Positions 18,989 through 51,047 of a stretch of 64,000 nt of DNA are shown here, in pieces. Location: positions 45,798 through 109,797 of the forward strand of contig JBAZSW010000003.1 of the NCBI GenBank assembly GCA_041662245.1, read 5' to 3'. The position numbers and the translations under genes are program-made. The first letter of the stretch is position 1, and each line of letters opens with the position of its first letter. The notes beneath the pieces are model-generated. The model was not told the origin of the DNA and made no database searches. It was given only the letters and a program-made list of their open reading frames with translations. The DNA comes from Parcubacteria group bacterium. GTDB taxonomy: Bacteria; Patescibacteriota; Minisyncoccia; Moranbacterales; UBA9337.

Positions 18989-19008
18989 TTATCCACAGTT
19001 AATTAACA
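18989..19008 (+). promoter_or_regulatory. TTATCCACAGTTAATTAACA: perfect DnaA-box 9-mer within a 20-nt motif shared with 51028-51047
   Basis: Direct reading of the sequence. Minus-strand reading is TGTTAA-N5-TGTGGATAA. Confidence 0.3.
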
Positions 19009-19268
19009 CACCCTTTAAAATTAAAAGTTTTTGCCACTATTCTAGCCACTCTTACTGTTGTAAGGTTGCCCGCAATGCTAGTTTTTACTATCATTTTCGA
19101 TATATCCACATTTTTTAAGTTATTTTTAATTAAAAGATTATCCATATTAACTAATAACTTTTCACTTAAATTTAGATCTCCCTCCCATTTTAATTCATCT
19201 ACTATCTCCTTTTCTCTCATTAAGTATAATATTGCCTTATTTTCTCTTATTTCTAATGTAATATTCAT
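18999..19268 (-). CDS. degenerate, truncated TsaB/YeaZ-like protein (N-terminal domain only, 89 aa)
   Basis: Co-linear with the TsaB N-terminus: LSEKLLVNMDNLL ~ HAEHLLPMIDELL, and SIAGNLTTVRVARIVAKTF ~ GPGSFTGLRIGVATAKGL. Confidence 0.35.
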   Translation of the reverse strand: MNITLEIRENKAILYLMREKEIVDELKWEGDLNLSEKLLVNMDNLLIKNNLKNVDISKMIVKTSIAGNLTTVRVARIVAKTFNFKGCVN

Positions 19269-19272
19269 ATTT

Positions 19273-20025
19273 TTATTTATTTATTTTTCCCCAATTAATA
19301 TTCCAAGGATCAGTCTTTCTCTTTGGCGCAATTTGATTGTGTCCCAGAATATAGCTTATCTCATATTTATTTTCCAGATATGCTATTAAATCATTTACTG
19401 CCACATATTGCTCTGAAGTAAATTCATCTTCTTCTATATTCATTAATTCTACTCCAATAGAAAAATTATTTACTCCCGTTCTTCCATCAGGCATCCTACT
19501 CTCTCCGGCATGATAGGCGATATTTTCATCCTTAACCAATCTAAATATTTCTCCTTTTCTATCAATTACATAATGTGGAGCTACTCCATATTCTTTATAT
19601 TCTAAGATAAGTTTTTCTAAACTATATTTATCTCCACCTAAGGCATTATAAGAAGAATGTAAAATGACAGTATCTATTTTCCTTCCATTAGAATAATCAA
19701 ATCCCCAAGATACCAATTTATCCTTTATTGCTAGACTATTTTTTAAATCTTTTTTAATTTCTGGCTTTATTTCTTCTTCTACCGAAATACCATCTGAATT
19801 TTCATTCTCAATAACTTCACTTTCCGCAACCGGTTTTTGAATATTGTTTTCAACTTCAACCACGGATAATTTTTCTTTGGGTTCTTTATCTTCTTTCAAG
19901 GGGACTTCCAAGGATTTGTTTTCATAAAGTAGGGCTTTCTGAGGAATTTTTAAATAAAAAAATCCCCACCAAGCCAAAGCCAGGGCAAGGATTAAAACTA
20001 AAATTGAACCTATTTTTATTTTCAC
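19273..20025 (-). CDS. N-acetylmuramoyl-L-alanine amidase (Amidase_2/PGRP fold), membrane anchored
   Basis: N-terminal TM. IDTVILHSS...YHAG...GVELMN...LGHNQIAPKRKTDP. Confidence 0.75.
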   Translation of the reverse strand: MKIKIGSILVLILALALAWWGFFYLKIPQKALLYENKSLEVPLKEDKEPKEKLSVVEVENNIQKPVAESEVIENENSDGISVEEEIKPEIKKDLKNSLAIKDKLVSWGFDYSNGRKIDTVILHSSYNALGGDKYSLEKLILEYKEYGVAPHYVIDRKGEIFRLVKDENIAYHAGESRMPDGRTGVNNFSIGVELMNIEEDEFTSEQYVAVNDLIAYLENKYEISYILGHNQIAPKRKTDPWNINWGKINK

Positions 20026-20091
20026 ATTTTTTATTTAAGTCAAGCTTTTGCACATTATAACCGCTTCATTTTTTAAAAAATTTGGTGTTTT

Positions 20092-20409
20092 TTAATTCTC
20101 TAAACAATCACAACTATCTATTTCTAAGCTATATATACCTCCCTCCATATTAATAACCTCTTTTCCAATATCATCAAGCAATTGAGCCACGTACCCACTT
20201 CGACTACCGCTTCGACAAACAAGAATAACTTTTTTGTTCCAATTAATATTATTCAGATTATTCATGATTTCTCCCATAGGAATAAGCTTGGAATTTTTTA
20301 TTCTCACAATTTTAAATTCTCCTTCCTCTCTCACATCCACTATTTCAAGATTTTGAAATTCTTTATTTATTAATTCTTTAAATTGTCTTTTATCAATAGA
20401 ATTTACCAT
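20092..20409 (-). CDS. single-domain rhodanese sulfurtransferase
   Basis: Active-site loop ILVCRSGSRSG. Confidence 0.75.
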   Translation of the reverse strand: MVNSIDKRQFKELINKEFQNLEIVDVREEGEFKIVRIKNSKLIPMGEIMNNLNNINWNKKVILVCRSGSRSGYVAQLLDDIGKEVINMEGGIYSLEIDSCDCLEN

Positions 20410-20412
20410 TTT

Positions 20413-21129
20413 TTAAGAGGCTAACATAGCTATTCTTTTATAATAAACATTGACATCAGCCACCCATTTATTGGCGGCTGCCTGACCTCCGGTGGCAGCG
20501 CAACTTCTCCCACATTTCCAAACCACCATCTTAGCTGGGGTATCAATATTCTGTTCTACTAATTCAGAAATTCTTCCACCAATAGCCCCAACTGCCTCTT
20601 CGGCGCTTCCGAAGCAACCATATCCCATAGCTACACCTTTAGAACCCATTCCCTTATATCCCCAGTAATTATAACATGTTTGTCCATTTTTCCAAGGAGA
20701 GTGCAATCCCCAACTGCTTTCCTTTTTAGCTATTCCCACAATTAAAGCTGCTATTTTTTTATCATATTTAGCTATAAAAGGAGCCATTTCTTCTATAGGA
20801 TGATCTTTTGTTATATTTCTAATCTCCCCTTCTAGATAGCTCATCTCTTCGAAATCTTCACCTTGAACACTTTTCGAGGCAAAAGTGTAATCTTCTATCT
20901 CATTCAAATTCCAATTATCATCTAATTTTAATTCAGCAACATGATTTAATCCGCTATTCCTAGCCTCAATATTGCCAAATACTAAATTTTTAACATAACC
21001 ACCGTAAAAAAAACAGCCCATAATGATTATCGCTATGGTTGTTAGCTTGTTACCTCTGTCTTTATACTTATTTTTTAATTTTTTAACTACTTTTTTACAA
21101 AAATCCAAAGGATTTTTACACATAAACAA
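20413..21129 (-). CDS. GH73-like glucosaminidase domain protein, membrane anchored, with Cys-rich C-terminal tail (paralog 1)
   Basis: GIAKKESSWG ~ glucosaminidase LESGWG catalytic motif. CYNYWGYKG ~ NNLFGIKG. C-terminal MVVWKCGRSCAATGGQAAANKW is shared with paralog 2. Confidence 0.45.
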   Translation of the reverse strand: MFMCKNPLDFCKKVVKKLKNKYKDRGNKLTTIAIIIMGCFFYGGYVKNLVFGNIEARNSGLNHVAELKLDDNWNLNEIEDYTFASKSVQGEDFEEMSYLEGEIRNITKDHPIEEMAPFIAKYDKKIAALIVGIAKKESSWGLHSPWKNGQTCYNYWGYKGMGSKGVAMGYGCFGSAEEAVGAIGGRISELVEQNIDTPAKMVVWKCGRSCAATGGQAAANKWVADVNVYYKRIAMLAS

Positions 21130-21160
21130 CTTTATTAATATTTACTAGCAACTGTTTCAG

Positions 21161-21193
21161 GACACAGAACCTATCATATCAAAGACACAGACC
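21161..21193. promoter_or_regulatory. direct repeat GACACAGAaCC ...(N11)... GACACAGAcCC, 32-64 nt upstream of the paralog-1 start
   Basis: Seen in the sequence. Start-to-start spacing is 22 nt (two helical turns). Confidence 0.3.
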
Positions 21194-21204
21194 CTGTCAA
21201 TGAA

Positions 21205-21213
21205 GTTATCCAC
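21205..21213 (+). promoter_or_regulatory. perfect DnaA-box 9-mer TTATCCACA (aagTTATCCACAg, the same 13-mer as at 18986)
   Basis: Direct reading of the sequence. Confidence 0.3.
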
Positions 21214-21400
21214 AGCCGAAATATTACTTCACACCCAAGCAAGGGAACGTTTTTGTCTAAAAGTTGAATGGCTTTTATAAAAATAAATCTCATATTAAAA
21301 AATAATCTAACATATATGAAAAAAAATTCCACAAACAAAAAAATCCTTATGAATAAAGGAATTTTTCGTATTGAATTTTGAAAAATTAATAAGCTTAATT

Positions 21401-22414
21401 TTATCTTTCCTCATTTAATCTTTCCAAAATCATATCTACATCTGAAATCCACTTATCAGCAGCTGCCTGACCTCCCGTGGCAGCGCAACTTCTTCCACAT
21501 TTCCAAACCACCATTTTTTCAGCTGTATCTCTACTATAATTTTCCACTAACTCTTCAATTCTTTTAGCAGTAATATCTACTGCTATTTCTCTATTTTTAA
21601 AACAAGAATGTCCGCCAGAACCCAATTCTTCGGTTTTGCCCCTATATCCAACATAATTATAACAGTCCTTTCCTTTTAATACAGGCACTCTTTTGCCCCA
21701 GTTGCTTTCTTTCTTAGCTATTGCAATATAAAAGGCTGCCACTTTAGGATCTTTCTTGAGAATATAGGGCATCATTTCTGCTATAGGATAGCCTTTAACT
21801 AATTCTTTAGCACGAATATTAAAATCTTTATCAGCCTCTGCCTTTAAATATCCAGCTATTTCTGCCAAATAGATATCTTCCTTCTCACTTGTCCATTCAT
21901 TTTTATTGATTGTTTCCGTATAAGCACCGGCTATTTCTTTGGGAGCAGCATCTTTTGCAGACACTCCTAACCCCAAATAACGATAGATAAAAGACATGGA
22001 AATCATTCCTATAATTATTGCCACCAAAATTGAAGCATTCCACAATCTTAAAATGGAAAACCTGCTAAGGAAAAACTCATATTTTTTAACGGTTACATTT
22101 TTTTGATAGTTGTCAAACCTTTTAGCAAATATCCGATATTGATAATATAAATAATCGCTATATTTAGCCTTAATTTTATTATGCTCTTGCATCGCTCTGC
22201 GATTTAAACTATCCAGCATCTTATTTTTAGTTCTAAATTCTACTAATTCAGCAGTCTTTCTATCATCACAATTAAAATATAAACAAGAGTCATTGGCAAA
22301 AAAAATATTTTGCCTCTTACCCTTAGAAAGCAAAAAACTTCCCGATTTTTCATTTCGAGATAAGTTAATTTTTTTTATTCTTTTATTATTTTTCGCATTA
22401 AAAGCACTATCCAT
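21401..22414 (-). CDS. GH73-like glucosaminidase domain protein with ~115-aa cytoplasmic N-terminus, TM and Cys-rich tail (paralog 2)
   Basis: IAIAKKESNWG, CYNYVGYRG, MVVWKCGRSCAATGGQAAADKW. Co-linear with paralog 1. Confidence 0.45.
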   Translation of the reverse strand: MDSAFNAKNNKRIKKINLSRNEKSGSFLLSKGKRQNIFFANDSCLYFNCDDRKTAELVEFRTKNKMLDSLNRRAMQEHNKIKAKYSDYLYYQYRIFAKRFDNYQKNVTVKKYEFFLSRFSILRLWNASILVAIIIGMISMSFIYRYLGLGVSAKDAAPKEIAGAYTETINKNEWTSEKEDIYLAEIAGYLKAEADKDFNIRAKELVKGYPIAEMMPYILKKDPKVAAFYIAIAKKESNWGKRVPVLKGKDCYNYVGYRGKTEELGSGGHSCFKNREIAVDITAKRIEELVENYSRDTAEKMVVWKCGRSCAATGGQAAADKWISDVDMILERLNEER

Positions 22415-22436
22415 CTTTTTCTAAAATTTAACTATA

Positions 22437-24215
22437 TTATTCTTTAGTAACTCTCAATATTTCCTCTATTGATGTTGTCCCTTCTGCTGCTCGGATAAAT
22501 CCGTCCTCTATCATAGTTAACACTCCCATTTCTGAAGCCTTTTTTTCAATGGTTTCCGCAGAAGCCGCTTGGGTAATCAACTTTTCAATTTCAGAATTAA
22601 TCTCTAATACTTCATAAATACCCATTCTTCCCTTGTAGCCTTCATCGTTGCATCTCTTACAGCCTTTGGGTTTATAAAATTTTATAGCTTCCCATCCCTT
22701 TTTTGCATCCACCTTATCTTTTAAATGATCTACCTTTGATAGCATCTCTAACATTTTTTTGGTATCGAAATTTTTCTCCAAAGTCTCCACTTCTTTTTTT
22801 TCTAAATTATATTCCGTTTTACATTCATTACAAAGTTTCCTTACTAAACGTTGAGCAATCACTACGTTGGTAGTAGAAGCTACCAAAAATGGCTCTGCTC
22901 CCATATCTAAAAGTCTAGGTAATGTTCCTGCGGCACTATTGGTATGCAAAGTCGAAAGCACTAAATGTCCCGTCATAGCGGCATGCATTGCAATTTCCAT
23001 AGTTTCTTCATCTCGAATTTCTCCAACCATTATAATATCTGGATCTTGTCTCAGCAAAGCTCTTAAGCTAGCGGCAAAAGTCAATCCTATTTTTGAATTG
23101 ATCTGAGTCTGATTAACTCTTGGCATTCTATATTCAACAGGATCTTCTACTGTACTAATATTAACTGTTGGGGTATTTAAAATATCCATTATAGTATAGA
23201 GAGTAGTTGTTTTTCCACTTCCCGTTGGTCCTGTTACCAGAATCATTCCGTTGGGCTTAGTAACTTCCCTATGGACGATTTCTAAGGCCTCGCCTTGAAG
23301 ACCCATCTTTTCTAAGGTTAAACCTTTTGACGTTTCGTCCAATAAACGCATTACCACTTTTTCTCCATCAAATATTGGCAAAATATTGACACGAAAAGAT
23401 ATTTTGTATTCATCATTGATTATTTTAAATCGACCATCCTGAGGAAGTCGATGCTCATCTAGTTTCAAATTAGCTAAAACTTTTATACGAGCAATAATCC
23501 CAGACATTATTTTTCTAGGTAAAGTCATGGCATCATGCAAAATTCCATCTATACGATATCTAACTCGCACTTCTTTTTCATCTGGTTCAATATGAATATC
23601 ACTGGCCGATTCAAGGATGGCATGTTTTATTAAAGTATCTACTACTCTTATAACTGGCAAATCCTCCGCTTCTTTTGACAATTTTTTATCTGAAGATTTA
23701 TCTATTTTTTCAGCAATAGCTCCTTTTGTTAAATTTTCTCCATCACCTTCTAGTCCAATCATGTCTCCAAACTCAGCCTTAAGACTCTTTTCATATTGCT
23801 TTAGAATATTAGATATGCCCTCTTCAGTGGTAAGGCAAGGCGTCACTGATAATCCAGTTTTCTTTTTTATAAATTCTATCGTTTGCAAATCGTCAGGATT
23901 CAACATTGCTACTTTCAATGTGCTATCCGATTTATCAAAAGCTACTATTTTATACTTTTTAGCGATTGGCTCAGGTATTATTTTTAAAATCTCCGGAGGA
24001 ATTGTTTCTTTACTTATGTCCACAAAGGGAGTTCCTAAAATATAGGCATACAATTTATCCAATTCTTCTTTCGAAACTAATTTTTTTTCCAATAATAATT
24101 CCCCCATTGGTCTTTTCTCTTTTTCTGCCAAATCAAAAATATCTTCAATCTCTTTTAAATCCAAGAGCTCACTATCTAACAAAAAGCCTTTTAATTGTTT
24201 ATTATCTACTCGCAT
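22437..24215 (-). CDS. pilB: type IV pilus / type II secretion assembly ATPase (GspE/PilB family)
   Basis: N-terminal T2SSE_N domain, Walker A LVTGPTGSGKTTTLY, Asp/His boxes, C-terminal tetracysteine CNEC...CKRC. Confidence 0.85.
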   Translation of the reverse strand: MRVDNKQLKGFLLDSELLDLKEIEDIFDLAEKEKRPMGELLLEKKLVSKEELDKLYAYILGTPFVDISKETIPPEILKIIPEPIAKKYKIVAFDKSDSTLKVAMLNPDDLQTIEFIKKKTGLSVTPCLTTEEGISNILKQYEKSLKAEFGDMIGLEGDGENLTKGAIAEKIDKSSDKKLSKEAEDLPVIRVVDTLIKHAILESASDIHIEPDEKEVRVRYRIDGILHDAMTLPRKIMSGIIARIKVLANLKLDEHRLPQDGRFKIINDEYKISFRVNILPIFDGEKVVMRLLDETSKGLTLEKMGLQGEALEIVHREVTKPNGMILVTGPTGSGKTTTLYTIMDILNTPTVNISTVEDPVEYRMPRVNQTQINSKIGLTFAASLRALLRQDPDIIMVGEIRDEETMEIAMHAAMTGHLVLSTLHTNSAAGTLPRLLDMGAEPFLVASTTNVVIAQRLVRKLCNECKTEYNLEKKEVETLEKNFDTKKMLEMLSKVDHLKDKVDAKKGWEAIKFYKPKGCKRCNDEGYKGRMGIYEVLEINSEIEKLITQAASAETIEKKASEMGVLTMIEDGFIRAAEGTTSIEEILRVTKE

Positions 24216-24239
24216 TTATATTTATTTTTATTTATCATT

Positions 24240-24617
24240 TTATCTTAGAGATAAAACTTCTTTTATTTTTTCTACTATTTCTCTTATTTGATAATCACCC
24301 TTCACTAAATAGGTTGTAGCCCCCAATTCAAGAGCTTTCTCTATATCATCCAAGCTTCCTAGATTAGTTAACAAAATAACTGGTATATCAGAAGTATCAT
24401 TATTGTCTTTAACTTCCTTCAATACTTCAAATCCATTTTTCTTAGGAAGAATTATATCCAATAGAATTATGTCTGGCTTACTAGTACCCACTAAAACGAT
24501 CCCCTCTTCTCCATCTGCAGCTACTGCAACACTAAAACCCTCCGATTCTAAAAACTCGGATAAAACATTCCTCAAGGTTGCATCATCTTCAATTATTAAT
24601 ATTTTTTTATTTTTCAT
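24240..24617 (-). CDS. stand-alone response-regulator receiver (CheY-like), no output domain
   Basis: ILIIEDD...D(53)IILLDIILP...K; 125 aa. Confidence 0.8.
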   Translation of the reverse strand: MKNKKILIIEDDATLRNVLSEFLESEGFSVAVAADGEEGIVLVGTSKPDIILLDIILPKKNGFEVLKEVKDNNDTSDIPVILLTNLGSLDDIEKALELGATTYLVKGDYQIREIVEKIKEVLSLR

Positions 24618-24656
24618 AAATTCACATTAATTTATTATTATTTAATTAAAAATATA

Positions 24657-25595
24657 CTAGGCAATTGGTAAGGAAAAATGAAACTCACTTCCCTCTCCTT
24701 CAATAGAGTGAAACCAAACCTTACCTCTGCTCCTCTCAATAATATTTTTCGCAATATATAAGCCCAATCCCGTTCCTCCCGTTTCTTTATTGGAGGCCTC
24801 TTTGCTTCGATAAAATTTATCGAAAACACGAATTTGCTCATTTTTAGGTATCCCAATCCCGCTATCTTTTATAGAAATTAATGCTTTTCTATTATCTTTT
24901 CCTACCTTTATTATCACACGTCCATTTTCTTTATTATATTTTATAGAATTTGATATAAAATTATCTAAAACCACTTCCATTCTTTTCTCATCGCCAATTA
25001 TTTTAGGCATATTATCATCTACCGTTAAATCGATATTTACTTTGTTCTTTTGTGTTAGCAGTTTATTTTTGTCTACCACTTTCCTTACTAAATCAACTAT
25101 ATCTATATCATCTCTTCTGGTGAAGAAATTGTTTTGATCCATTCTGGCTACATCTAATAAATCATTGACCATTCTGGACATAAGGGCATTGGAAGACTCG
25201 ATGTTGTTTATAATATTTCTTTGCTTATCCGTTAGCCCTTCGCTATATTTAGCTACTAAAAGTTCAATATCCCAACTTATGCCCGTAAGCGGGGTTTTTA
25301 ACTGATGTGAAACTATAGAGACGAACTCTGATTTGGTTTTATTGACTTGAGCTAATTTTTCCATGCTCCCTATGATGATATTTCCAATAGTCAGAATGGC
25401 TATTACCACCACGGATTCTGCTACTACTAAAAATTCTGTAGTTATATATTTCCTGGAAACGAAGAAAACTATTGCCATGACAGAGGCAATAATAAATCCC
25501 AATGCAATAAACAAGAAACTAGGCGCCTGCCAAAAACTAACCCCTAAACTATCTGCCTGCTTTTTTATATTTAAATCATTAACTATCCAACTCAT
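24657..25595 (-). CDS. sensor histidine kinase (2 TM, HisKA + HATPase_c)
   Basis: H-box SHQLKTPLT, N-box, G2 box GGTGLGLYIAKNI. Confidence 0.8.
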   Translation of the reverse strand: MSWIVNDLNIKKQADSLGVSFWQAPSFLFIALGFIIASVMAIVFFVSRKYITTEFLVVAESVVVIAILTIGNIIIGSMEKLAQVNKTKSEFVSIVSHQLKTPLTGISWDIELLVAKYSEGLTDKQRNIINNIESSNALMSRMVNDLLDVARMDQNNFFTRRDDIDIVDLVRKVVDKNKLLTQKNKVNIDLTVDDNMPKIIGDEKRMEVVLDNFISNSIKYNKENGRVIIKVGKDNRKALISIKDSGIGIPKNEQIRVFDKFYRSKEASNKETGGTGLGLYIAKNIIERSRGKVWFHSIEGEGSEFHFSLPIA

Positions 25596-25657
25596 TGATA
25601 AATTATTAATTTTTATCTACAACTTTTCGTTAATTATAACACAGAAAATTAACAAAT

Positions 25658-25690
25658 AAAAATCAACTAATTAATTAGTTGATTTTTATT
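25658..25690. terminator. perfect 30-bp palindrome AAAAATCAACTAATT|AATTAGTTGATTTTT; bidirectional intrinsic terminator
   Basis: Stem with flanking A-run and T-run. Lies between the small ORF (25734-25868) and the HK promoter region. Confidence 0.5.
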
Positions 25691-25733
25691 TATTTTATTT
25701 TAATCTATATAATATAATTTTATTGATTTTATA

Positions 25734-25868
25734 TTATATAATTCCAAAATTCATAAAAAATGTCAGCACCAAAAGAGGAACTAAAGACAACAGAATAGAA
25801 AACCTTCCTTCTTCGTTATGGTCTGACTCAAAAAGATCTTTGTTTAATACTGCTTTTATTTTTTCCAT
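25734..25868 (-). CDS. possible 44-aa small membrane protein (MEKIKAVLNKDLFESDHNEEGRFSILLSLVPLLVLTFFMNFGII)
   Basis: Translated manually (below the ORF-track length cutoff). Hydrophobic C-terminus. No other support. Confidence 0.2.
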   Translation of the reverse strand: MEKIKAVLNKDLFESDHNEEGRFSILLSLVPLLVLTFFMNFGII

Positions 25869-26076
25869 ATTTTTTTATTTTTGTTTTTAAATTATTGTAT
25901 AGGATGATGTCTAAAGAGTGTTTTTATTTAACTCATTTTATAGAACCAATCGACCATTTGGCTTAAAAAACAAAAAATGAATCCTCACCCCGAGAATTCA
26001 CCCTATCTTTATAAGGTCTTTATTTAACCTTACAAACTCATTATACACCATTTTAACTTAAAAGTCAAACCATTTT

Positions 26077-26487: not shown

Positions 26488-26511
26488 ATTTTTAAAACAA
26501 ACATTTTTATT

Positions 26512-26850: not shown

Positions 26851-26928
26851 ATTTTTATTGTTTTATTAAAAATTAGTAATCAATAATTGGCAACTGGCAA
26901 TTATTTGCGAGTTACTGATTGCTACTTA

Positions 26929-28121: not shown

Positions 28122-28131
28122 CTCCTTTATA

Positions 28132-42284: not shown

Positions 42285-44090
42285 CTAATTTTCTAATTCT
42301 TTCTTTGCCTCCTCTATTTCCAAAAGTTGTCTTGGATCAGAAGTAATAATCTGATCTTCACTGTAGGAAGCCACTACCTTTATCGCAGCGTGCTTATTGC
42401 CCGCAAAAAATATCCCCTCTCCCACATTGCTTTCCAACAATAAAAACTTTTCTTGATCAGTTAAAAAGAATGTTTCTTGAACTATATCAATAGCCGCCGT
42501 AGATTGCTTTAATAAAAACTGAGTGGAAGCATTGGTTACAATCGGTTTTCCATAACGAGAAGTCATAAAATCATTAACATCCTGAGTAATCGTGGTTAAT
42601 CCTGTATAATATTTTCTACATCTTTTAGCTATTCCAAAAAGAAAAGAAGCGGCATCTTCATGTTGCATCATTATCCAAGCCTCATCCACCACCACCAAAC
42701 GCCTTTTTATTTTTGATCGCATTTGATTCCAAATAAATTGCAACACTACATACATAGCAATTGGACGCAATTCCTCTTCCAGATCACGAATGTTAAAAAC
42801 TACCAACTGTTTATCCGTTTTTATATTAGTATGCTCATTCAAAAATCCAGAGAATATTCCTTCGGTATATCTTTCTAATTTAATTGCCAATGATTTGGCT
42901 CCGTCCATATTTCTTAAAACCTCATAGAGATCTGACATGGTTGGAAATTGATTTAACTCAATTAAAGAAAAATTAGTTTGTTCTGTAATATCTCGCACAG
43001 CATAAGTTTCTCGAATAGCATTATCTAATATAGAATTTTCTTCAGGAGTAAGATTTCCCAACATTATTCTTAAAAGTCCTACCAAATTAGCAATTGAATT
43101 TCTCAAGATATCAGAAGAATCTTCATCTTCTGATGCACTCGGTAAATCAAAAGGATTGAGGTGATATTTGGAATTAAGTGCTATTTTTATAAAACTGCCT
43201 CCTACTGTATCAGATAAATGCTTGTATTCATTTTCTGGATCAATTATTATTACATCCACTCCCATCATCATTGATCGAAGTATCTCCAGCTTAACGGCAT
43301 AACTTTTTCCTGCTCCACTTTTTGCGAAAACCACCATATTAGCATTTTCCATTTCAAATCGATCAAATAAAATCAAACTATTATTATGACGATTGATTCC
43401 ATATAATACTCCCGAGTTGGAAGATAGTTCCGCTGAAACAAATGGAAAAATAGTAGAAAGGGGCGAGGTGTTTAAATTGTTAGCAACGTCCAATCTGTCT
43501 TCATTCAATGGAATAGTAGAAGCTAGTCCATCTTCCATTCTAAAACTGGCTGGCTTGGCATAAACCATTTGCGCTTCCAATATAGCCTCAATACTATGAT
43601 GAACTCTGTTTAAATCCTTGGTGCTTTCTCCAAATATTGTTATATAAATCCCTACTCGAAAAAATCTTTCTGTTCCTTCTTGTAACCTCGTTCGTAATTC
43701 TTCTGTATTTTCCAAAGCAGACTCCAACATAGGATTCCTTACTTTTCCATCTTGAGCTTCTAAATTTATTCGAGACTGAATTTGAGTAGTAGTTTTCAGA
43801 AGTCCTTTCAATACTTTATTGCTATCCATAGGATGGATAAATATTGAAATATTTATTGGATGATCAATATTAATTATAGAAGAAAACCAATTGACGCTTA
43901 AAAACCTAGGAAAAGCCATAACAAAAATGGTTTTCGCAAAAGTTTCCCCAATTTCCAAATAGCTTGGCGCAACTCTAAAAGCCGCGGGTGAGATTAAATC
44001 TTTTATTACCGCCAAACCCTTTCGATACTCGTCCTCCTTGGCGATAACAGGGTCTATCGGTCGATTTCTATTTCTGTTATTTAAAAACAT
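42285..44090 (-). CDS. VirB4/TrbE/CagE-family type IV secretion ATPase (ATPase core)
   Basis: Walker A VFAKSGAGKSYAV, Walker B LVVVDEAWIMM. 601 aa. Confidence 0.75.
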   Translation of the reverse strand: MFLNNRNRNRPIDPVIAKEDEYRKGLAVIKDLISPAAFRVAPSYLEIGETFAKTIFVMAFPRFLSVNWFSSIINIDHPINISIFIHPMDSNKVLKGLLKTTTQIQSRINLEAQDGKVRNPMLESALENTEELRTRLQEGTERFFRVGIYITIFGESTKDLNRVHHSIEAILEAQMVYAKPASFRMEDGLASTIPLNEDRLDVANNLNTSPLSTIFPFVSAELSSNSGVLYGINRHNNSLILFDRFEMENANMVVFAKSGAGKSYAVKLEILRSMMMGVDVIIIDPENEYKHLSDTVGGSFIKIALNSKYHLNPFDLPSASEDEDSSDILRNSIANLVGLLRIMLGNLTPEENSILDNAIRETYAVRDITEQTNFSLIELNQFPTMSDLYEVLRNMDGAKSLAIKLERYTEGIFSGFLNEHTNIKTDKQLVVFNIRDLEEELRPIAMYVVLQFIWNQMRSKIKRRLVVVDEAWIMMQHEDAASFLFGIAKRCRKYYTGLTTITQDVNDFMTSRYGKPIVTNASTQFLLKQSTAAIDIVQETFFLTDQEKFLLLESNVGEGIFFAGNKHAAIKVVASYSEDQIITSDPRQLLEIEEAKKELEN

Positions 44091-44129
44091 ATTTAAATTA
44101 ATTATTTAGTTAACCCAATAATAAATTCC

Positions 44130-44816
44130 TCATTCCAACTCTATTGACTCCAAATCTTTTATAGCAGCAGCCGAATAAATCGATGGATTATAGGATGAAT
44201 ATAATAATTCAATTAATTCTTCGGTATTTAAAACTGTCGATTTAACTCCCAGCGAAGCTAATCCTGAAGAAATTTGATCTACTCTCTGCCATAATTGATT
44301 TTTATAAGTCTCAAAAATTTCTACTGATTCCTCTATTTGTTGTTTTGGATTAAAAAGACTCATTAATTTTTCCAAAAGACCATTCTCTAAATTTTCTACG
44401 GGATAAAATGGCACTACTACATAAAACTGTTTGGTCATTATTTGTGATATTTCCGTTAAATTTTTTATGAAGTTTGAATATTCAGAAATTTGAAGTCGCA
44501 TCAACTCACTGGTTTGTGTTTTTCTTTTCTTCTCTAATAATTCTAGATAAGGTTCTATGTCCAATTTTTTTGAACTAATCATAATCTGCACTGGAAAATC
44601 CAAAGAATTAATAAAATTTTGATAACCTCCAATTATTGCTTCTTGTTCATCTGACGATTTCAAATCAAAATTTATAGAAGAAACTAATAAAATTGCTCTT
44701 AATGATTTATTTTTTAAAACCACTAAATCATTTTTTACTTCTTCTACATTGATATATTTCTGAGTACTCATTGCCGATTTTTGTGATTTTTGATTTTTTG
44801 CGTGCATCAATTCCAT
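44130..44816 (-). CDS. hypothetical protein, possibly a split-off VirB4 N-terminal domain
   Basis: 228 aa directly upstream of the ATPase core, with a 39-nt gap and stops in all frames in between. The sum, 829 aa, matches the usual VirB4 length. Confidence 0.4.
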   Translation of the reverse strand: MELMHAKNQKSQKSAMSTQKYINVEEVKNDLVVLKNKSLRAILLVSSINFDLKSSDEQEAIIGGYQNFINSLDFPVQIMISSKKLDIEPYLELLEKKRKTQTSELMRLQISEYSNFIKNLTEISQIMTKQFYVVVPFYPVENLENGLLEKLMSLFNPKQQIEESVEIFETYKNQLWQRVDQISSGLASLGVKSTVLNTEELIELLYSSYNPSIYSAAAIKDLESIELE

Positions 44817-44927
44817 ATTTTTTATTTTTTTCGCTCGTCATTTCGAGCTTATCCACTAATTATATAATTTATGACACTCCTTTAGGATTTTAACTGTACA
44901 ATTTTAAAAAAATACCCGAATAAAAAG

Positions 44928-45356
44928 TTATTTTTTATTTATCTCATCTAAAATATCTGTTTCACTATCTAATATCTTAGATATGTCATAAATTTCTTTT
45001 TGTTTTGGCAAATTCTTATGCGCCACACTGTGAATCACTTCTTTTTTATATACTTTTTTCTCATCCAATACTTTTCCGTTTCTTTCCCACATATATACCT
45101 TTGGCCTGACAAAAAATAAAAACATTGAACCAATAAATTTACTTAATGGCTGACCATAGGGACGATAAAAAGCTAACCCAAGAAATAACAAGCTTACAGG
45201 AGATGCTGCTAAAAAAAAGTTTAACCTACTTCCTATAAAAATCCACATTAAAAATAAAACTGCTGCCAAACCGAACAGCCACAATAATTGCTTGGCAGTC
45301 AGTGGCCCTACAATTTGGTCTTCTATATCTATAAATTGTGGAACATTATAATGCAT
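44928..45356 (-). CDS. PrgI/VirB3-like small two-TM T4SS protein
   Basis: 142 aa. FIDIEDQIVGPLTAKQLLWL then two TM helices. Positioned upstream of VirB4 as in Gram-positive T4SS. Confidence 0.45.
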   Translation of the reverse strand: MHYNVPQFIDIEDQIVGPLTAKQLLWLFGLAAVLFLMWIFIGSRLNFFLAASPVSLLFLGLAFYRPYGQPLSKFIGSMFLFFVRPKVYMWERNGKVLDEKKVYKKEVIHSVAHKNLPKQKEIYDISKILDSETDILDEINKK

Positions 45357-45483
45357 AATTTTAAATACTCAATGTTCAATGTTTATTCAATATTCAACTC
45401 TCAATATCCCATAAATTAATTTGAATATTAATTTATTTTATTATTAAATGTGTATTGGTTATTGCATATTGGAATATTATTTT

Positions 45484-46611: not shown

Positions 46612-46630
46612 AAGTCTTAAGCATAAAAAA

Positions 46631-48565
46631 CTAAGCCCACATTCCGGCACCTTGTCCTTGCATATATTTGTCTCCTCTCATTTCACTAGTGAGTTTAGCT
46701 CTAGCACTAGGTGAATATCCATTAATGACATCCGTAGCACCACCCACAACACCACTTTTTCCAGGTATTGAAGCTGTCGCTACGATTCTTTCAATGTTCT
46801 GCTCCTTCCAATCATTCGTGTTTAATTTTGCAAATTCTTTTTTGGCTATATCAAAAGCAGCCCCTCCCGTTGCTCCAGTTCTTACTATCTCTTCGTTTAT
46901 TATTAAATCAACATTCTTTTTTCTTACGTTGCTTTCGAATAAATTTTTATAAACATCATTATCCCCAAGAACAGTCAATCCTTCTTGATATTGCTTAAGT
47001 GCTTTATCGGGATCTTTATCAAAACCTTTTGTTTCTGCTCTATGAAGAGCTAATGCCATTTTTTCAGCTTTGCTTCCGCTACTATCTATTCTATTTGTTT
47101 CAGCGTCACTTATTCCACTTCCTTCCTTATACTTCTTTAGATTCTCTTGAACTAGTTTTTCATTAGCACCCTTAACTCCAAGAAAATCTGCAGATTGAGT
47201 TTTTCTTGTAGTTGAAGCTGTTTTATAATTCTCACCCCAGCTATCCCATTTCGCTTTGAGTCCTCCTATGCCTCCAGAAATTCTATGTCCTGTCATTGTA
47301 TCAACACCCTTCCCTGCTAACCCCACTGTTCCCCAAGCTGCTTTTTGTCCATAAGATTTAATATTATTTCCTACTTTTTTTGCCATACCCATCGCCATCT
47401 CAGATCCCATTCCTCCCATTTTTTGAGAAATAGTTAATCCCATCCAAAGAAAAATAACTCCAATAATATGTATCGGTATCTCAGTTCCTGCTACATTAGT
47501 ACTACTACTCAATGTTCCTTTACTAAATAGAACCATCGTTATTAATAAAAAGAATGCCAATACCGGACCCATAAAAGCATACTTCAATAATTTATCCCAC
47601 CAGTCATTTGATATACTACTAGTCCCAGGAAAAAATGCGAACACAAAGCCAAAGGGTGATAATATTACCAAAACGATAAAAGCTATCATTCTTATTAATA
47701 AATTTATTGCCAAAGCCATTATTGTGACAGTGTAAATAAATAAAAGAACGATGCTAACAATTATTTGCCCTGTTGTATTTCCTGATGTAAAAGATGCTTC
47801 ATTATATTGATTTTTTAAAGTATCTCCAAATTTTAAAACTTTACCTATGTAAGCAGAAGAACTGGCGCTACTGCTATTTGGGAAAGCAACTTCCACTAAA
47901 AATCTCATTGCTGAATTAGAAAAATCCACTACGAATACTGCGATGGCATAACTAAAATTGACCAATAGCGCCATCACTACCAACATTATAATTATTTTTT
48001 TAAGATTATATTTTTCTACCTGAAAAATCGTACAAAAAGCAGAAAATAATAACAATAGCATAAAAAACAGATTTAATATGTCCCTTACTGCTGCCCACAG
48101 TTTGTAAACACTTCCTTCTTTAATCAAGTCTCCTAAATAATCTGTATTGAGAGCAAAATCCAGCAATTGTGCTGCTATAATTAATAATTTTGAAATCGCC
48201 CATAACACACTGTAAAGTAACCAATTAAAAACCCACAATGATCCTCCTTTTGCCACCGACGAAACACTAACACCCACAGAATTAAGTGCATTTTTTCCAG
48301 CTAAAAATGTACTTCCACCAGGAACTGCCATTAGCATTGAAGAAGTTTTTAGTCTTGATGCTATATCATCTATCCAATCAGCTTTTGCAGAAATGCCTAT
48401 TTTACTATTTGTGAAATTAATATTTAAAATCATAACTCCCAAAATCAAAAACAAACCTATTTTGCCGAAGGCTTTTTTGGATGGATTTTTTAGTGAGTTT
48501 TTTATCCTATTAAATAAATTATCTACAAACTTAATAGGACTATTCCCATTTTTTTTCATTATCAA
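46631..48565 (-). CDS. VirB6/TrbL-like polytopic membrane protein with long Gly-rich C-terminal extension
   Basis: ~7-8 TM helices in the first 400 aa. 644 aa. Confidence 0.45.
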   Translation of the reverse strand: MIMKKNGNSPIKFVDNLFNRIKNSLKNPSKKAFGKIGLFLILGVMILNINFTNSKIGISAKADWIDDIASRLKTSSMLMAVPGGSTFLAGKNALNSVGVSVSSVAKGGSLWVFNWLLYSVLWAISKLLIIAAQLLDFALNTDYLGDLIKEGSVYKLWAAVRDILNLFFMLLLLFSAFCTIFQVEKYNLKKIIIMLVVMALLVNFSYAIAVFVVDFSNSAMRFLVEVAFPNSSSASSSAYIGKVLKFGDTLKNQYNEASFTSGNTTGQIIVSIVLLFIYTVTIMALAINLLIRMIAFIVLVILSPFGFVFAFFPGTSSISNDWWDKLLKYAFMGPVLAFFLLITMVLFSKGTLSSSTNVAGTEIPIHIIGVIFLWMGLTISQKMGGMGSEMAMGMAKKVGNNIKSYGQKAAWGTVGLAGKGVDTMTGHRISGGIGGLKAKWDSWGENYKTASTTRKTQSADFLGVKGANEKLVQENLKKYKEGSGISDAETNRIDSSGSKAEKMALALHRAETKGFDKDPDKALKQYQEGLTVLGDNDVYKNLFESNVRKKNVDLIINEEIVRTGATGGAAFDIAKKEFAKLNTNDWKEQNIERIVATASIPGKSGVVGGATDVINGYSPSARAKLTSEMRGDKYMQGQGAGMWA

Positions 48566-48765
48566 AAAAATAATTTTTGTATTTATTTGAGCGAAACCGT
48601 TTTCCTTATTTTACCACAAAAACAAAGAAAAAATAACAACACGAAAAGTAATATTTTTCCTGAGTATAATTATAACAGAAATATAAGAATATACAAAATT
48701 TTTATTTTTCATAATTGTACTATTTTTATAACATATAAAAATAAGTCATGAAAATAAAATTTAAA

Positions 48766-48809
48766 AACCATCAAAGCTACTAATTCAAGCAATTGATGGT
48801 TATGTTTTT
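48766..48809. terminator. hairpin AACCATCAA-N18-TTGATGGTT + T-run; bidirectional terminator after the 73-aa gene
   Basis: 9-bp perfect stem. T5 on plus, T-rich on minus. Confidence 0.55.
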
Positions 48810-48820
48810 CAAACAAAACT

Positions 48821-49042
48821 TTAGAGAATCATCTGTCTCAGCCCCCAAATAGAGGAAGCGGGAGCTATAATGACTCCTAATATGAAGGATGCAATTATTC
48901 TATTAAAATAAGCATCGACATCATTTAACATCAAATTCGACATTGCCATATTTGCGACAACTACCGCTACCGCCAAAAGAAGCAGCGATGCAACAAATAC
49001 ATAAATTCCGATACTCTTTTTGGTTTTCTCTTCTTTACTCAT
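48821..49042 (-). CDS. small two-TM protein, VirB2/TrbC pilin-like candidate
   Basis: 73 aa, two hydrophobic helices, own terminator. Confidence 0.35.
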   Translation of the reverse strand: MSKEEKTKKSIGIYVFVASLLLLAVAVVVANMAMSNLMLNDVDAYFNRIIASFILGVIIAPASSIWGLRQMIL

Positions 49043-49165
49043 GGCATCCTCCCTCTTTTCAATGTTAGTGTTTTTTATATAAAATGTACTATTTTTCTCA
49101 GCATTATTTTAACACAAAATTGTTTACTTATCAATAAAAAGATATCCATCAAAATAAAACAAATG

Positions 49166-49205
49166 AAAACCGCCTAACACCAAAAAGGCATCGGGCGGTT
49201 TTTTG
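49166..49205. terminator. GC-rich hairpin AAAACCGCC-N19-GGCGGTTTT + T-tract; bidirectional terminator after the 107-aa gene
   Basis: Only strongly GC-rich stem in this AT-rich region. Immediately follows the stop at 49223. Confidence 0.6.
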
Positions 49206-49222
49206 ACTAACCATTGAAAGTA

Positions 49223-49546
49223 TCAACAGTTAGCAGCAGACGATTTGGCAGAAGAAGGTTTATTATTGGATATCTCAGAAGGAGAGACTACCCCATAAAT
49301 TTTCTTCATTCCGTTTATAATTAGCAACGGAGCACCTCCCCAACAGCACAGGGTTGCAAACATTGTTTTTAGTGGGTTGGCATCGTTCATAATTCCTTCC
49401 CAGGTAAACATATCTGCTGTGTAGTTCTGAACTGTGTTTGAAAGAAGCAGGGCGATGGCTAGAATCAAAATTCCAGCAACAACGGTGCTAATTCCATTCA
49501 TTTTTTCATTCATGCTTTCCTTTTCACTCATAACCGTACCCTCCAC
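49223..49546 (-). CDS. small two-TM protein, VirB2/TrbC pilin-like candidate
   Basis: 107 aa, two hydrophobic helices, C-terminal Ser-rich tail, own terminator. Confidence 0.35.
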   Translation of the reverse strand: MEGTVMSEKESMNEKMNGISTVVAGILILAIALLLSNTVQNYTADMFTWEGIMNDANPLKTMFATLCCWGGAPLLIINGMKKIYGVVSPSEISNNKPSSAKSSAANC

Positions 49547-49712
49547 TATTTTTTAATTTAAAAGTTAACTGCTAATTTAACGCCAAATTTAGCGTTAACT
49601 CACTATAGCAGAAAACGGTTTTTCTGTCAAGTCAAACAAAAAACAGCCTCCAAAAGAAAGCTGTTTTTATACTATGCATAATTTTATAAACCTTACAAAC
49701 TTTATAAACTTA

Positions 49713-50789
49713 CTAATAAATAAATCCTTTTATTACCCTACTATTAGTCGGGATAGTTCTTCTGCTAGTTTTAGCCCATCCTTTATAATTCATTTCTGAG
49801 ACAGTGATAGTTCCTTTGCCAACAGATTCTACGATAGCCACGTGTCCCCACCATGATTCAGAGCTAACCATGATCGCTCCCGCCGCTGGTGCTTTTCCCG
49901 TTTTATAACCTCGAGCTTTGGCATTATATAACCACGTTCCTGCATTCCCTCCCCATGGCACATATCTTTTTTGGGCCACATACCAAGTACAATAACCATA
50001 AGGAAATCTATGTCCAGTTCCTCCCTTTCCATCCAATTTTAATGTTCCTGAAATCTTAGGATCCCCACCCGTTGACGTCGCATAACTTCTTCTTTCAATT
50101 CCCAATGTGTCTGTCTGAACTGGCACAGGAATATCTTTCTGTCCCCCAGGGATAACTATTTCCTGACCCTCTGCAATTTCTCCATTAGCGGGAATATTGT
50201 CATTAAAAGATATTATTTTTTCTTTTTCCGCTTTATATTCCTTAGCTATATCATCTAAATTTTCTCCTTTTTTAACCACATGTGTCAAACCAGCTACTGG
50301 TAAAATAAAAATTTGATCCCCAGGTTTTATTTCATCCACATCTTCAATATCATTTGCCCAAAGAATAGTATTGGTTGTTATGTCAAATTTTTGAGCAATA
50401 GTGCTTACAGTATCTCCATCTTTAACTACATAAACTTCCACACCTCCATCTTCTTCTGGGTCTTTTAATACAGGACTCGAAGGGGCGCTTACAATTTTAC
50501 CCTCCACTGAATTTATTTGATTTAAATCATCCTCTTTGAATTCCGGATTAACCGCTTTGCTAGCTACAGAAATAGGACTTAATTGAGCTCGTTTACTATT
50601 TTCAGCTTCAATACTCATATCGTTTTTAATTCTGTCTTCGCCACTAGTTCTCCATTCTCCTGCTAAAAAGCTACCTGTCTTCCCTTGCGCAGCCATGTTG
50701 GTGATACTCACTAATATTGCGCCAGAGAAAACCACAGCCAAAGCAGAATATTTCCTAAAAAGGTATAATAATTTTACCGTTTGATGCAT
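49713..50789 (-). CDS. LysM-LysM-CHAP peptidoglycan hydrolase (VirB1/PrgK-like role)
   Basis: Two LysM repeats (YVVKDGDTVSTIAQKF..., HVVKKGENLDDIAKEY...). CHAP domain with Cys (GYCTWYV) and His (WGHVAIV). Confidence 0.75.
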   Translation of the reverse strand: MHQTVKLLYLFRKYSALAVVFSGAILVSITNMAAQGKTGSFLAGEWRTSGEDRIKNDMSIEAENSKRAQLSPISVASKAVNPEFKEDDLNQINSVEGKIVSAPSSPVLKDPEEDGGVEVYVVKDGDTVSTIAQKFDITTNTILWANDIEDVDEIKPGDQIFILPVAGLTHVVKKGENLDDIAKEYKAEKEKIISFNDNIPANGEIAEGQEIVIPGGQKDIPVPVQTDTLGIERRSYATSTGGDPKISGTLKLDGKGGTGHRFPYGYCTWYVAQKRYVPWGGNAGTWLYNAKARGYKTGKAPAAGAIMVSSESWWGHVAIVESVGKGTITVSEMNYKGWAKTSRRTIPTNSRVIKGFIY

Positions 50790-51027
50790 CTTTATAAAAA
50801 GAGCAATTTTTCTTTGTATATTATAAGTCTTTGTCTGAAAATTTTTACTTTTTACAAGAATCTTTTGAAAAAATCCTTTTATTTGTTTTTTACAAATACA
50901 GCAAAAATCCTTTCTTTAGTTCAAACTTTTAGAATTTTGCAATAAAAAAAGCAATTTTCATCAAATTCGAACTCTAATTTTTATACTCAAGCTATTATAT
51001 TATTAATAATCGTCAAAGTCAAAGCAC

Positions 51028-51047
51028 TTATCCACAGCTTATTAACA
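51028..51047 (+). promoter_or_regulatory. TTATCCACAGCTTATTAACA: perfect DnaA-box 9-mer within the shared 20-nt motif
   Basis: Direct reading of the sequence. 240 nt upstream of the CHAP gene and 158 nt upstream of xer. Confidence 0.3.

Follow-up and report, generated by a model that had tools for sequence, protein, structure and literature searches.

Three intergenic copies of the nine-base sequence TTATCCACA in a stretch of Candidatus Moranbacteria DNA are probably DnaA boxes, acting as operators of three promoters of the sigma-70 type. The stretch, 64,000 nucleotides long, is here called the window. Its layout suggests direct control by DnaA of three sets of genes, for a secretion system, for enzymes of the cell wall and for a giant surface protein. 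DnaA is already known as a transcription factor. No description of such a putative regulon in this phylum was found in the literature.

The host belongs to the candidate phyla radiation (Moranbacteria/Patescibacteria), and is not a Firmicute. It is uncultured and its genome is tiny. The window is an origin-proximal part of the chromosome, and its right end reads yidC-jag-rpmH-rnpA. Relatives with synteny here have a spacer of 1.1-1.6 kb next, and then dnaA. The origin of replication, oriC, would lie beyond the right end, with the window stopping some 1-1.6 kb short of dnaA and the three promoter boxes at ~15-47 kb from the predicted origin. Because the window's own dnaA region falls outside it, the comparison with oriC is drawn from relatives, with YidC identities of 84-85% and 62%. 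The idea that the sites themselves are the chromosomal oriC was rejected: GC skew is monotonic over the window, and each site has one to three boxes that abut a promoter.

The DnaA-box consensus used here is TTATCCACA (TTWTNCACA), 9 bp long. The window holds five perfect copies, all on its plus strand, against 0.73 expected from shuffled sequence; one shuffle in 100 also gave five. Three copies are intergenic, match the consensus at 9/9 positions and lie upstream of minus-strand genes, as had been noted earlier. The original prediction listed three perfect copies in all. Those at 18989 and 51028 were placed correctly, the one given as 21205 starts at 21206, and those at 5930 and 13026 were missed. 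The latter two are in coding DNA and probably arose by chance. A G flanks the box (TTATCCACAG), as at many sites that DnaA occupies in E. coli in vivo. All features are listed in Table 1.

Table 1. Boxes, promoter-like elements and genes, in window coordinates.
Feature	Position	Strand	Details
Perfect 9-mer	5930..5938		within an ORF, codons Val-Asp-Asn
2477-aa Kelch/fn3 protein	11153-18586		
Perfect 9-mer	13026..13034		within the 2477-aa ORF, codons Val-Asp-Asn
65-aa MerR/BldC-like protein	~18629-18826		small HTH protein
Sigma-70-like promoter	18939..18967	-	TTGACT-17-TATAAT with TG, 11/12
Third, weak box	18978..18986	-	TGGGGATAG, 7/9; 2 bp downstream of perfect box (gene strand)
Perfect DnaA box	18989..18997	-	TGTGGATAA on gene strand; middle of three-unit head-to-tail array
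89-aa ORF	18999-19268		
Second, degenerate box	19000..19008	-	TGTTAATTA, 6/9; 2 bp from perfect box
Amidase_2	19273-20025		
Rhodanese	20092-20409		
238-aa protein	20413-21129		
Sigma-70-like promoter	21173..21200	-	TTGACA-16-TATGAT with TG, 11/12
Perfect single DnaA box	21206..21214	-	5 bp upstream of -35
Histidine kinase and response regulator pair	24240-25595		response regulator at 24240-24617
VirB4-like	42285-44090	-	T4SS run
TrsD/TraC-like	44130-44816	-	T4SS run
One-mismatch copy	44849..44857	-	TTATCCACT (AGTGGATAA in site listing); 32 nt from start codon
PrgI	44928-45356	-	T4SS run
VirB6-like	46631-48565	-	T4SS run
LysM-CHAP	49713-50789	-	first gene of T4SS run
Sigma-70-like promoter	50994..51022	-	TTGACT-17-TATAAT, 11/12
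Perfect DnaA box	51028..51036	-	5 bp upstream of -35
Second box	51039..51047	-	TGTTAATAA, 7/9; 2 bp from perfect box

The one-mismatch copy at 44849 had been proposed as a fourth member. One-mismatch copies are frequent in the window (34 observed, 21 expected), no promoter was found downstream of this one, and in L158, a relative with 88% identity in the downstream protein, the orthologous spacer lacks it. It is probably a chance occurrence outside the system. The proposed tie between the motif and hydrolase or secretion genes accordingly holds for three operons and not for the fourth site.

In the intergenic part of ~600 kb of Moranbacteria-related sequence, 26 boxes were counted where permuted 9-mers average 0.58 and none of 600 reached 26, although many of the counted copies are orthologous, so that these statistics overstate their independence. 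The coding part shows no such enrichment, with 9 copies where permuted 9-mers average 6.1.

The three intergenic boxes share one orientation, and each lies directly upstream of the sigma-70-like promoter that scores highest in its region (11/12 in all three cases). The gap to the -35 element is 5 bp at 21206 and 51028, and 21 bp at 18989. Three of the ten best promoter-like sites in the window have a perfect box at most 45 nt upstream; at the other seven, the best box has at least three mismatches. Of 53 strong promoter-like sites in 542 kb of Moranbacteria sequence, 14 are accompanied by a forward box with one mismatch or none. A reverse box at this threshold is found at none of the 53, the best having two mismatches. 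All 14 sites with forward boxes fall in the orthologous groups of the window's three promoters.

Box, -35 and -10 stand out as conserved islands in relatives whose flanking proteins are ~52-70% identical and whose surrounding DNA has diverged. The 5-bp offset is kept in nearly all lineages, and is 4 bp in one. The genes downstream of the three sites are not homologous to each other, and the flanks are unrelated past ~35 nt. The same arrangement, box-N5-TTGAC-spacer-'-10', also precedes dnaA (L049) and LysM/M23 hydrolase genes (L146, L074) on unrelated metagenome contigs.

At 51028, the promoter is upstream of the LysM-CHAP gene, with which a minus-strand run of type IV secretion system (T4SS) genes begins. 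This run also contains other promoter-like sites of 10-11/12 and a terminator-like hairpin. The two boxes here follow the double DnaA box pattern, TTATCCACA-GC-TTATTAACA. In orthologous promoters the box is perfect in L163/L164 and L165, has one mismatch in L158, L159 and L166, and is missing in L160. Where retained, its distance to the -35 is 4-5 bp, even at a LysM-CHAP identity of 69%. The L158 equivalent of the second box reads TGTTGATAA (8/9), and both of its boxes carry one mismatch. Given this and the absent box in L160, DnaA control of the T4SS promoter would not be universal.

The promoter next to 18989 appears placed to drive the gene of the small MerR/BldC-like protein and that of the 2477-aa Kelch/fn3 protein. 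The perfect box is invariant in the orthologous sites (L002-L007), and the three-unit array is preserved at this promoter in relatives. The perfect and second boxes again fit a double DnaA box, in the same orientation and 2 bp apart (TTATCCACA-GT-TAATTAACA). The second box overlaps the stop codon of the 89-aa ORF, and reads TGTGGATTA (8/9) in relatives; equivalents of the third are TGTAGATAG, TGGGGATAT or TGTGGATTA.

At 21206 there is a single box, which does not fit the double-box pattern. This is the best conserved of the sites. CTGTGGATAACTT is kept in six relatives (one has TGTGCATAA), with DNA further upstream not alignable. The promoter there retains CTGTG(G/C)ATAACTT, TTGACA and the -10, while the 238-aa protein falls to 52-54% identity. 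By its position, the promoter seems placed to drive this protein and the rhodanese, and also Amidase_2 and the 89-aa ORF. The 238-aa gene had been labelled GH73; it has no Pfam, NCBIfam or PDB match. Being a single box counts against 21206: of 32 such consensus boxes in E. coli, only 13 are occupied in vivo (PMC11317965).

The origin loci of relatives connect this motif to DnaA. In three of them most perfect boxes flank dnaA: 4 of 4 in L155 (in 20.7 kb), 3 of 5 in L161 and 2 of 2 in L162. The 20-nt double box (TTATCCACAG-N-TTATTA...) recurs in the dnaA-dnaN spacer, as a consensus box with a 6-7/9 box 2 bp away. These copies, TTATCCACAGTTTATTAG and TTATCCACAGGTTATTAAG, match the window's TTATCCACAG(C)TTAWTTAACA. 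One assembled genome (L004 and L161) holds both the promoter boxes and the boxes flanking dnaA. The DnaA of L155 (457 aa) and that of B. subtilis (8btg) align along their whole length (E 1e-106). Domain IV of the relatives' DnaA retains PRQ (..PRQI..) and RDHTT..HA (..RDHTTalHA..), which we take to be residues that contact bases.

The original prediction had named DnaA as its alternative reading, and the exact 9/9 core and the boxes and double boxes around dnaA in relatives support it. Its 20-nt extension is present, as TTATCCACAGTTAATTAACA at 18989 and TTATCCACAGCTTATTAACA at 51028; the copy at 21206 lacks the second unit. The 11-bp periodicity it described is real, and a double DnaA box spaced by 2 bp appears to account for it better.

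In the proposed mechanism, DnaA would bind the boxes through its domain IV. Each of the two double boxes would take a DnaA dimer, and on the single box DnaA might sit beside RNA polymerase. Binding would tune (i) the LysM-CHAP and T4SS genes, (ii) the cell-wall operon of 238-aa protein, rhodanese and amidase, and (iii) the small MerR/BldC-like protein with the 2477-aa Kelch/fn3 protein. Expression of the three operons would then follow how much DnaA is present or which nucleotide it carries, and so the replication cycle. As to the direction of the effect, we tentatively favour that DnaA at low occupancy activates the promoter or stabilises RNA polymerase, because the box is outside the core promoter and its 5-bp offset is almost always kept (4 bp once). 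Repression may set in once DnaA-ATP oligomerises, as in E. coli nrdAB. The three promoters are near consensus, and so may do without an activator.

Alternatively, the boxes could do no more than bind DnaA near the origin, for titration or as a reservoir, much as datA and the clustered DnaA boxes of B. subtilis do. Free DnaA would then be buffered once initiation has taken place, and any promoter effect would be incidental. We consider this unlikely. Consensus boxes do bind both nucleotide forms of DnaA, and every site has the origin-proximal position that pure titration also predicts. In E. coli, DnaA boxes are in conserved excess close to oriC, which has been interpreted as titration (PMC12371093). 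Titration needs no fixed orientation or offset, however, and at strong promoter-like sites the boxes with at most one mismatch are all forward (14, against none in reverse), with the 5-bp offset kept in nearly all lineages; nor do one to three boxes per site form a cluster. The titration and promoter-operator roles are not mutually exclusive.

A dedicated factor other than DnaA might instead recognise CTGTGGATAAST, for example the 65-aa MerR/BldC-like protein, possibly regulating itself. Its gene is directly behind the three-unit array at 18989, it matches MerR_1, and BldC binds direct repeats as head-to-tail multimers (PMC5859096). This is nonetheless very improbable. The match to the BldC subfamily is far below threshold (18.5 against a cut-off of 77 bits), two of the promoters hold just one or two units, and the motif equals the DnaA consensus exactly, with most perfect copies in the origin loci of three relatives flanking dnaA. 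A BldC-type operator was rejected on its period as well: it repeats every 9 bp, with AATTNNNN(C) as the unit, and here the period is 11 bp with TGTGGATAA as the core.

The original prediction preferred a response regulator of the WalR/OmpR type, which would control peptidoglycan hydrolases through TGTTAA-N5-TGTGGA direct repeats. It drew on the 11-bp head-to-tail periodicity at two sites and the cell-wall enzymes among the downstream genes, and a histidine kinase and response regulator pair is indeed nearby. This reading is now largely refuted, and we give it very little credence. The host is not a Firmicute, and the sole response regulator in the window is a receiver domain without a DNA-binding domain. 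The half-site TGTGGA breaks TGTWAH at positions 4-5, with the first half fitting at two sites, and 21206 stands without a partner. Conservation covers the full 9-mer with its flanks, which fits DnaA rather than a hexamer repeat, and the identical motif flanks dnaA in relatives.

That the boxes are chance AT-rich 9-mers in AT-rich intergenic DNA, or resemble each other through a duplicated promoter cassette, is scarcely credible: one shuffle did reach five copies, and the coding copies and 44849 do look random, but chance would not give the intergenic excess, the boxes kept while flanks diverge or the strict position and orientation relative to promoters, and a cassette does not fit the non-homologous downstream genes and unrelated flanks.

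If DnaA does act at these promoters, the meaning could be wider. In candidate phyla radiation bacteria, genomes are tiny and recognisable regulators few. The T4SS of Patescibacteria may, by one proposal, take up DNA or other macromolecules, and the single one tested experimentally was essential for epibiotic growth. To our knowledge, almost nothing is known about its control. It is possible, and we offer this tentatively, that in Moranbacteria, and perhaps in Patescibacteria at large, DnaA is a master regulator that couples replication initiation to the machinery for host-dependent acquisition: the chromosomal T4SS, peptidoglycan hydrolases and the giant adhesin-like protein. This would be a functional counterpart of the control of E. 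coli DnaA over nucleotide supply (nrdAB, purH). A 2025 survey found that Patescibacteria T4SS genes adjoin dnaA and proposed gene dosage; the word 'promoter' is absent from that paper (PMC12102498). DnaA control would add a second reason for this location. Genetics in this phylum is just becoming possible. A conserved candidate DnaA operator at the T4SS and two cell-envelope operons makes control by the replication initiator a cheaply testable hypothesis, and the box is a defined cis-element for reporter or EMSA work, with TGTCCATAA as an example of a point-mutant form of TGTGGATAA.

The nearest known system is the set of double DnaA boxes in E. coli (nrdA, purH, polA, nrdD, dnaA, rpoH), where DnaA in vivo binds mainly pairs 2-3 bp apart, the consensus box often being followed by G (Stringer, Fitzgerald and Wade 2024, PMC11317965). 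There, consensus TTATCCACA stands head to tail with a 5-8/9 box at 2-3 bp, and 18989 and 51028 have the same structure. The E. coli targets are nucleotide synthesis, repair and replication genes bound in vivo, whereas the window sites are known from sequence, precede T4SS, cell-wall and giant surface protein genes in a candidate phyla radiation host, and include a single box 5 bp from its -35.

E. coli nrdAB is activated or repressed by DnaA through high-affinity boxes in its promoter region, with RNA polymerase stabilised at low occupancy and repression at high DnaA-ATP (PMC8203912); box positions and target functions differ in the window. Operators of WalR (TGTWAH-N5-TGTWAH) and the OmpR family share the 11-bp head-to-tail periodicity and the downstream cell-wall hydrolase genes, but here the conserved half is off consensus, 21206 is a lone unit, the host belongs to a different phylum and the window encodes no such regulator. 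In P. aeruginosa, gidAB-parAB (oriCII) is regulated by DnaA boxes directly before an origin-proximal promoter, linking initiation to another cell-cycle process (PMC13438810). Those boxes are inside an origin element, while the window sites are no part of an origin and lie ~15-47 kb from the predicted oriC. Like datA and the box excess near E. coli oriC (PMC12371093), the window has high-affinity boxes close to the origin; unlike titration sites of that type, they come as one to three boxes with orientation and spacing locked to a promoter.

The three intergenic copies of the perfect DnaA box TTATCCACA, which reads TGTGGATAA on the gene strand, each precede the best sigma-70-like promoter of their region. 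The genes lie on the minus strand; all three promoters score 11/12. From this layout, its conservation and the match to the boxes that flank dnaA in relatives, we infer that DnaA binds here and modulates promoter output. The box is not a general promoter element, since 7 of the 10 best promoter-like sites in the window lack a good one. A perfect box is found at most 45 nt upstream of the other three; the seven have at least 3 mismatches. In 542 kb of Moranbacteria sequence most strong promoter-like sites also do without: 14 of 53 have a forward box with no more than one mismatch, and these fall without exception into the same three groups of orthologous promoters. Reverse-oriented boxes at that threshold occur at none of the 53, and the best reverse match has 2 mismatches.

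Features of the window and of compared loci (positions are in the window unless a locus is named)
Feature	Position	Strand	Sequence or remark
Box copies within ORFs	5930, 13026	plus	TTATCCACA
Probable true start of MerR-like gene	18826		ATG (65 aa), not GTG at 18919
Terminator-like hairpin	18904-18918	minus	TGCCGatttcCGGCA + T-run; between 18967 promoter and MerR-like gene
Box, MerR-like/Kelch operon	18997 to 18989	minus	TGTTAATTA-ac-TGTGGATAA-ct-TGGGGATAG-N10-TTGACT-17-TATAAT; perfect box to -35: 21 bp
Gene of 238-aa protein	20413-21129	minus	
Box, 238-aa cell-wall operon	21214 to 21206	minus	cTGTGGATAA-cttca-TTGACA-16-TATGAT; gap to -35: 5 bp
Gene of 337-aa protein	21401-22414	minus	
Histidine kinase gene	24657-25595		
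Rejected further site	25613		TGTAGATAA
Extended -10 promoter	~25630-25650	minus	TTTTTGTGNTATAAT; no -35
One-mismatch copy	44849		
Leader element, LysM-CHAP/T4SS operon	~50975-50993	minus	AAGTATAAAAATTAGRGYT; immediately past -10
Box, LysM-CHAP/T4SS operon	51036 to 51028	minus	TGTTAATAA-gc-TGTGGATAA-gtgct-TTGACT-17-TATAAT; gap to -35: 5 bp
rpmH	63279-63419	minus	
rnpA	63549-63884	plus	
Palindrome, 16 bp	63933-63948		TGTTYCACGTGRAACA; extreme right edge
Palindromes in relative L155	8109-9295		11 copies in 1.2 kb
Palindromes in relative L161	8753-9296		7 copies
Box in L024, distant Moranbacteria genome	1602-1610		perfect; 7 bp upstream of TTTGCA-N-TACAAT
Boxes in metagenome contig L049	35-90		cctgtggatca tgtggacaag CTGTGGATAAC; TTGACA 5 bp downstream

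At the promoter of the 238-aa gene, CTGTG(G/C)ATAACTT, TTGACA and the -10 form invariant islands in seven lineages, among which protein identity goes down to 52-54%, and the DNA upstream of the islands cannot be aligned. Relatives retain the three-unit array of the MerR-like gene promoter, with an outer unit closer to the consensus box than the window's, TGTGGATTA. At the LysM-CHAP/T4SS promoter, L163/L164 and L165 carry a perfect box; in L158 (TGTGTATAA, next to an 8/9 partner), L159 (AGTGGATAA) and L166 (TGTGGACAA) the box deviates by a single base. Wherever present, it is separated from the -35 by 4-5 bp. L160, where the protein is 58% identical, has no box.

Some other elements were seen around these operons. 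Relatives keep the hairpin in front of the MerR-like gene, L007 with a compensatory change; it may be an attenuator. The leader element AAGTATAAAAATTAGRGYT is invariant in six lineages, one of them L160, where the DnaA box has been lost; this element may serve as another operator or act at the RNA level. The rest of this leader of about 200 nt is conserved in close relatives only. A C-terminal domain (..IAKKES[SN]WG..VVWKCGRSCAATGGQAAA[ND]KW..) that is widespread in Moranbacteria loci is common to the paralogous 238-aa and 337-aa proteins. They had been labelled GH73, a name that finds no backing in Pfam, NCBIfam or PDB sequences, where the domain has no match. Upstream of the histidine kinase gene, TGTAGATAA was considered as a further site and rejected, as relatives do not keep it. 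The operon of this kinase, a response regulator and PilB has an extended -10 promoter that is kept in more than 10 lineages and is preceded by a terminator hairpin. The L024 box (60% PilB identity) and its promoter-like site lead into another cell-surface operon, encoding a 249-aa protein with a signal peptide and a membrane protein of 359 aa.

The core of the conserved sites is the exact DnaA-box consensus, and the dnaA regions of three relatives carry it too. In L155 (YidC 84% identical to the window's) all 4 perfect boxes in 20.7 kb flank dnaA, two in the dnaA-dnaN spacer and two upstream of dnaA. In L161 (85%) this holds for 3 of 5, two in the spacer and one upstream, and in L162 (62%) both perfect boxes are just upstream of dnaA. 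The spacer copies, TTATCCACAGTTTATTAG and TTATCCACAGGTTATTAAG, share a 20-nt pattern with the two extended copies of the window. L004 and L161 belong to one assembled genome, which thus has the motif beside dnaA as well as at two of the promoters. The DnaA of the relatives aligns over its full length with that of B. subtilis, and its domain IV retains the motifs PRQ and RDHTT..HA.

The right end of the window is formed by jag, yidC, rpmH and rnpA, and in syntenic relatives a non-coding stretch of 1.1-1.6 kb and then dnaA-dnaN-dciA come next. This means that the window is the first ~64 kb to one side of the origin. The minus strand carries nearly all genes, and the GC skew stays near -0.3 from end to end. 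Housekeeping genes (ruvA, holA, fpg, rlmH, pcrA, thiI) are interspersed among type IV pilus and T4SS genes, the latter being PrgI, VirB6-like, TrsD/TraC-like, VirB4-like and LysM-CHAP. Given this chromosomal mixture, and as a megablast search of PLSDB with 46 kb of the window gave no plasmid match, a plasmid or ICE origin was rejected. Scans of the window for tRNAs and Rfam families gave no match.

At the right end, rpmH and rnpA are divergent instead of forming the usual operon, likewise in L155 and L161. The palindrome TGTTYCACGTGRAACA is repeated in the rnpA-dnaA spacer of these two loci, occurs once in the window and is absent from L158, L159, L160 and L162; this repeat may be specific to the origin.

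If DnaA is the binder, the boxes could in principle do nothing but titrate it near the origin. This is compatible with the location, and origin-proximal titration fits published work (PMC12371093), but it leaves the strict orientation and spacing unexplained. We lean towards a contact-dependent effect of DnaA on RNA polymerase, either activation or stabilisation, because the box stays clear of the core promoter and because nearly every lineage keeps the 5 bp between box and -35 (one has 4 bp). The sign is not settled by sequence. Repression would be possible once DnaA-ATP oligomerises from the consensus box across weaker neighbours.

A dedicated factor other than DnaA is conceivable, for example the adjacent 65-aa MerR/BldC-like protein. 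The sharing of DnaA's exact consensus would then have to be coincidence, and BldC repeats are 9-bp units of the AATT type.

The original prediction preferred a response regulator of the WalR/OmpR type. This reading fails on several counts: the host phylum is wrong, the only response regulator in the window is just a receiver domain, the consensus is unmatched, and one of the sites is a single box. The window does not come from a Firmicute. Metagenome-assembled genomes of Candidatus Moranbacteria (Moraniibacteriota) encode proteins that share 83-89% identity with the window's PilB-type ATPase, and 100% identical copies of its YidC and LysM-CHAP are on a 196-kb contig labelled 'Parcubacteria group bacterium'. 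DnaA, named in the same prediction as the alternative, is what the exact core and the boxes flanking dnaA point to; the proposed comparison with the dnaA/oriC region, located in relatives, turned up the same motif and 20-nt pattern.

Chance as the origin of the three intergenic copies is excluded. The window has five perfect copies of TTATCCACA, all on the plus strand, where 0.73 are expected, and five were reached in 1 of 100 shuffles preserving dinucleotide content. In about 600 kb of pooled Moranbacteria-related sequence, intergenic DNA has 26 copies versus 0.58 for permuted 9-mers, an enrichment of ~45-fold that none of 600 permuted 9-mers reached, with the caveat that many pooled copies are orthologous and so not independent. 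Coding DNA is not enriched (9 copies versus a mean of 6.1). The two copies within ORFs, which both encode Val-Asp-Asn, are likely chance; they had been missed at first, while the three intergenic ones had been reported correctly except for one base (21205 for 21206). The 20-nt extension described for two of these is real, TTATCCACAGTTAATTAACA at 18989 and TTATCCACAGCTTATTAACA at 51028. A fourth, one-mismatch site at 44849 did not hold up: it lies 32 nt from a start codon with no promoter downstream, and it is missing from the orthologous spacer in a relative that shows 88% identity in the downstream protein. One-mismatch copies are frequent in the window (34 observed, 21 expected), and this one is likely a chance match too.

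A metagenome scan with CTGTGGATAASTNNNTTGAC, a pattern of box-N5-TTGAC, found at least 120 loci, where by rough estimate ~200 chance matches are expected in a collection of that size. The matches listed are heterogeneous, many being coding (GyrB 'VDNSIDEA') or from high-GC organisms. Dominated by chance and coding matches, the scan is anecdotal support only. Among the matches listed, low-GC contigs with a proper -10 have dnaA (L049), a LysM-M23 peptidase (L146), a LysM protein (L074) and mraZ (L057) downstream. The L049 site has three DnaA boxes at intervals of ~10-11 bp, and the ORF downstream of them has a Walker A motif and an N-terminus resembling that of DnaA; the architecture of this promoter is that of the window's sites. 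About 14 high-GC contigs among the matches listed (L041, L050, L051, L060, L067, L070, L084, L121, L129, L133, L134, L139, L148, L150) share a homologous intergenic segment, ..TTTCTGTGGATAACTTTGTTGACAGCTTG...AATCAAGGCTTT.., with no plasmid match and no dnaA gene nearby on these contigs.

It is established that DnaA can act in transcription as a regulator, that boxes can be paired as double DnaA boxes, and that boxes can precede origin-proximal promoters. We found no description of a DnaA operator on a Patescibacteria T4SS promoter or envelope operon, and a literature search on 'DnaA box' and Patescibacteria returned no paper. A 2025 survey did note that Patescibacteria T4SS genes are close to dnaA and attributed this to gene dosage; its text never uses the word 'promoter' (PMC12102498). 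The idea of a DnaA operator is readily testable.

In E. coli, ChIP-seq shows the preferred in vivo target of DnaA to be a 'double DnaA box', with boxes 2-3 bp apart and the consensus box often followed by G (PMC11317965). The 11-bp periodicity, correctly noted early on and then ascribed to WalR/OmpR, matches this spacing. Repression via DnaA-ATP oligomerisation across weaker boxes has been described for nrdAB (PMC8203912), and the array at 18989 has such weaker neighbours beside its consensus box.
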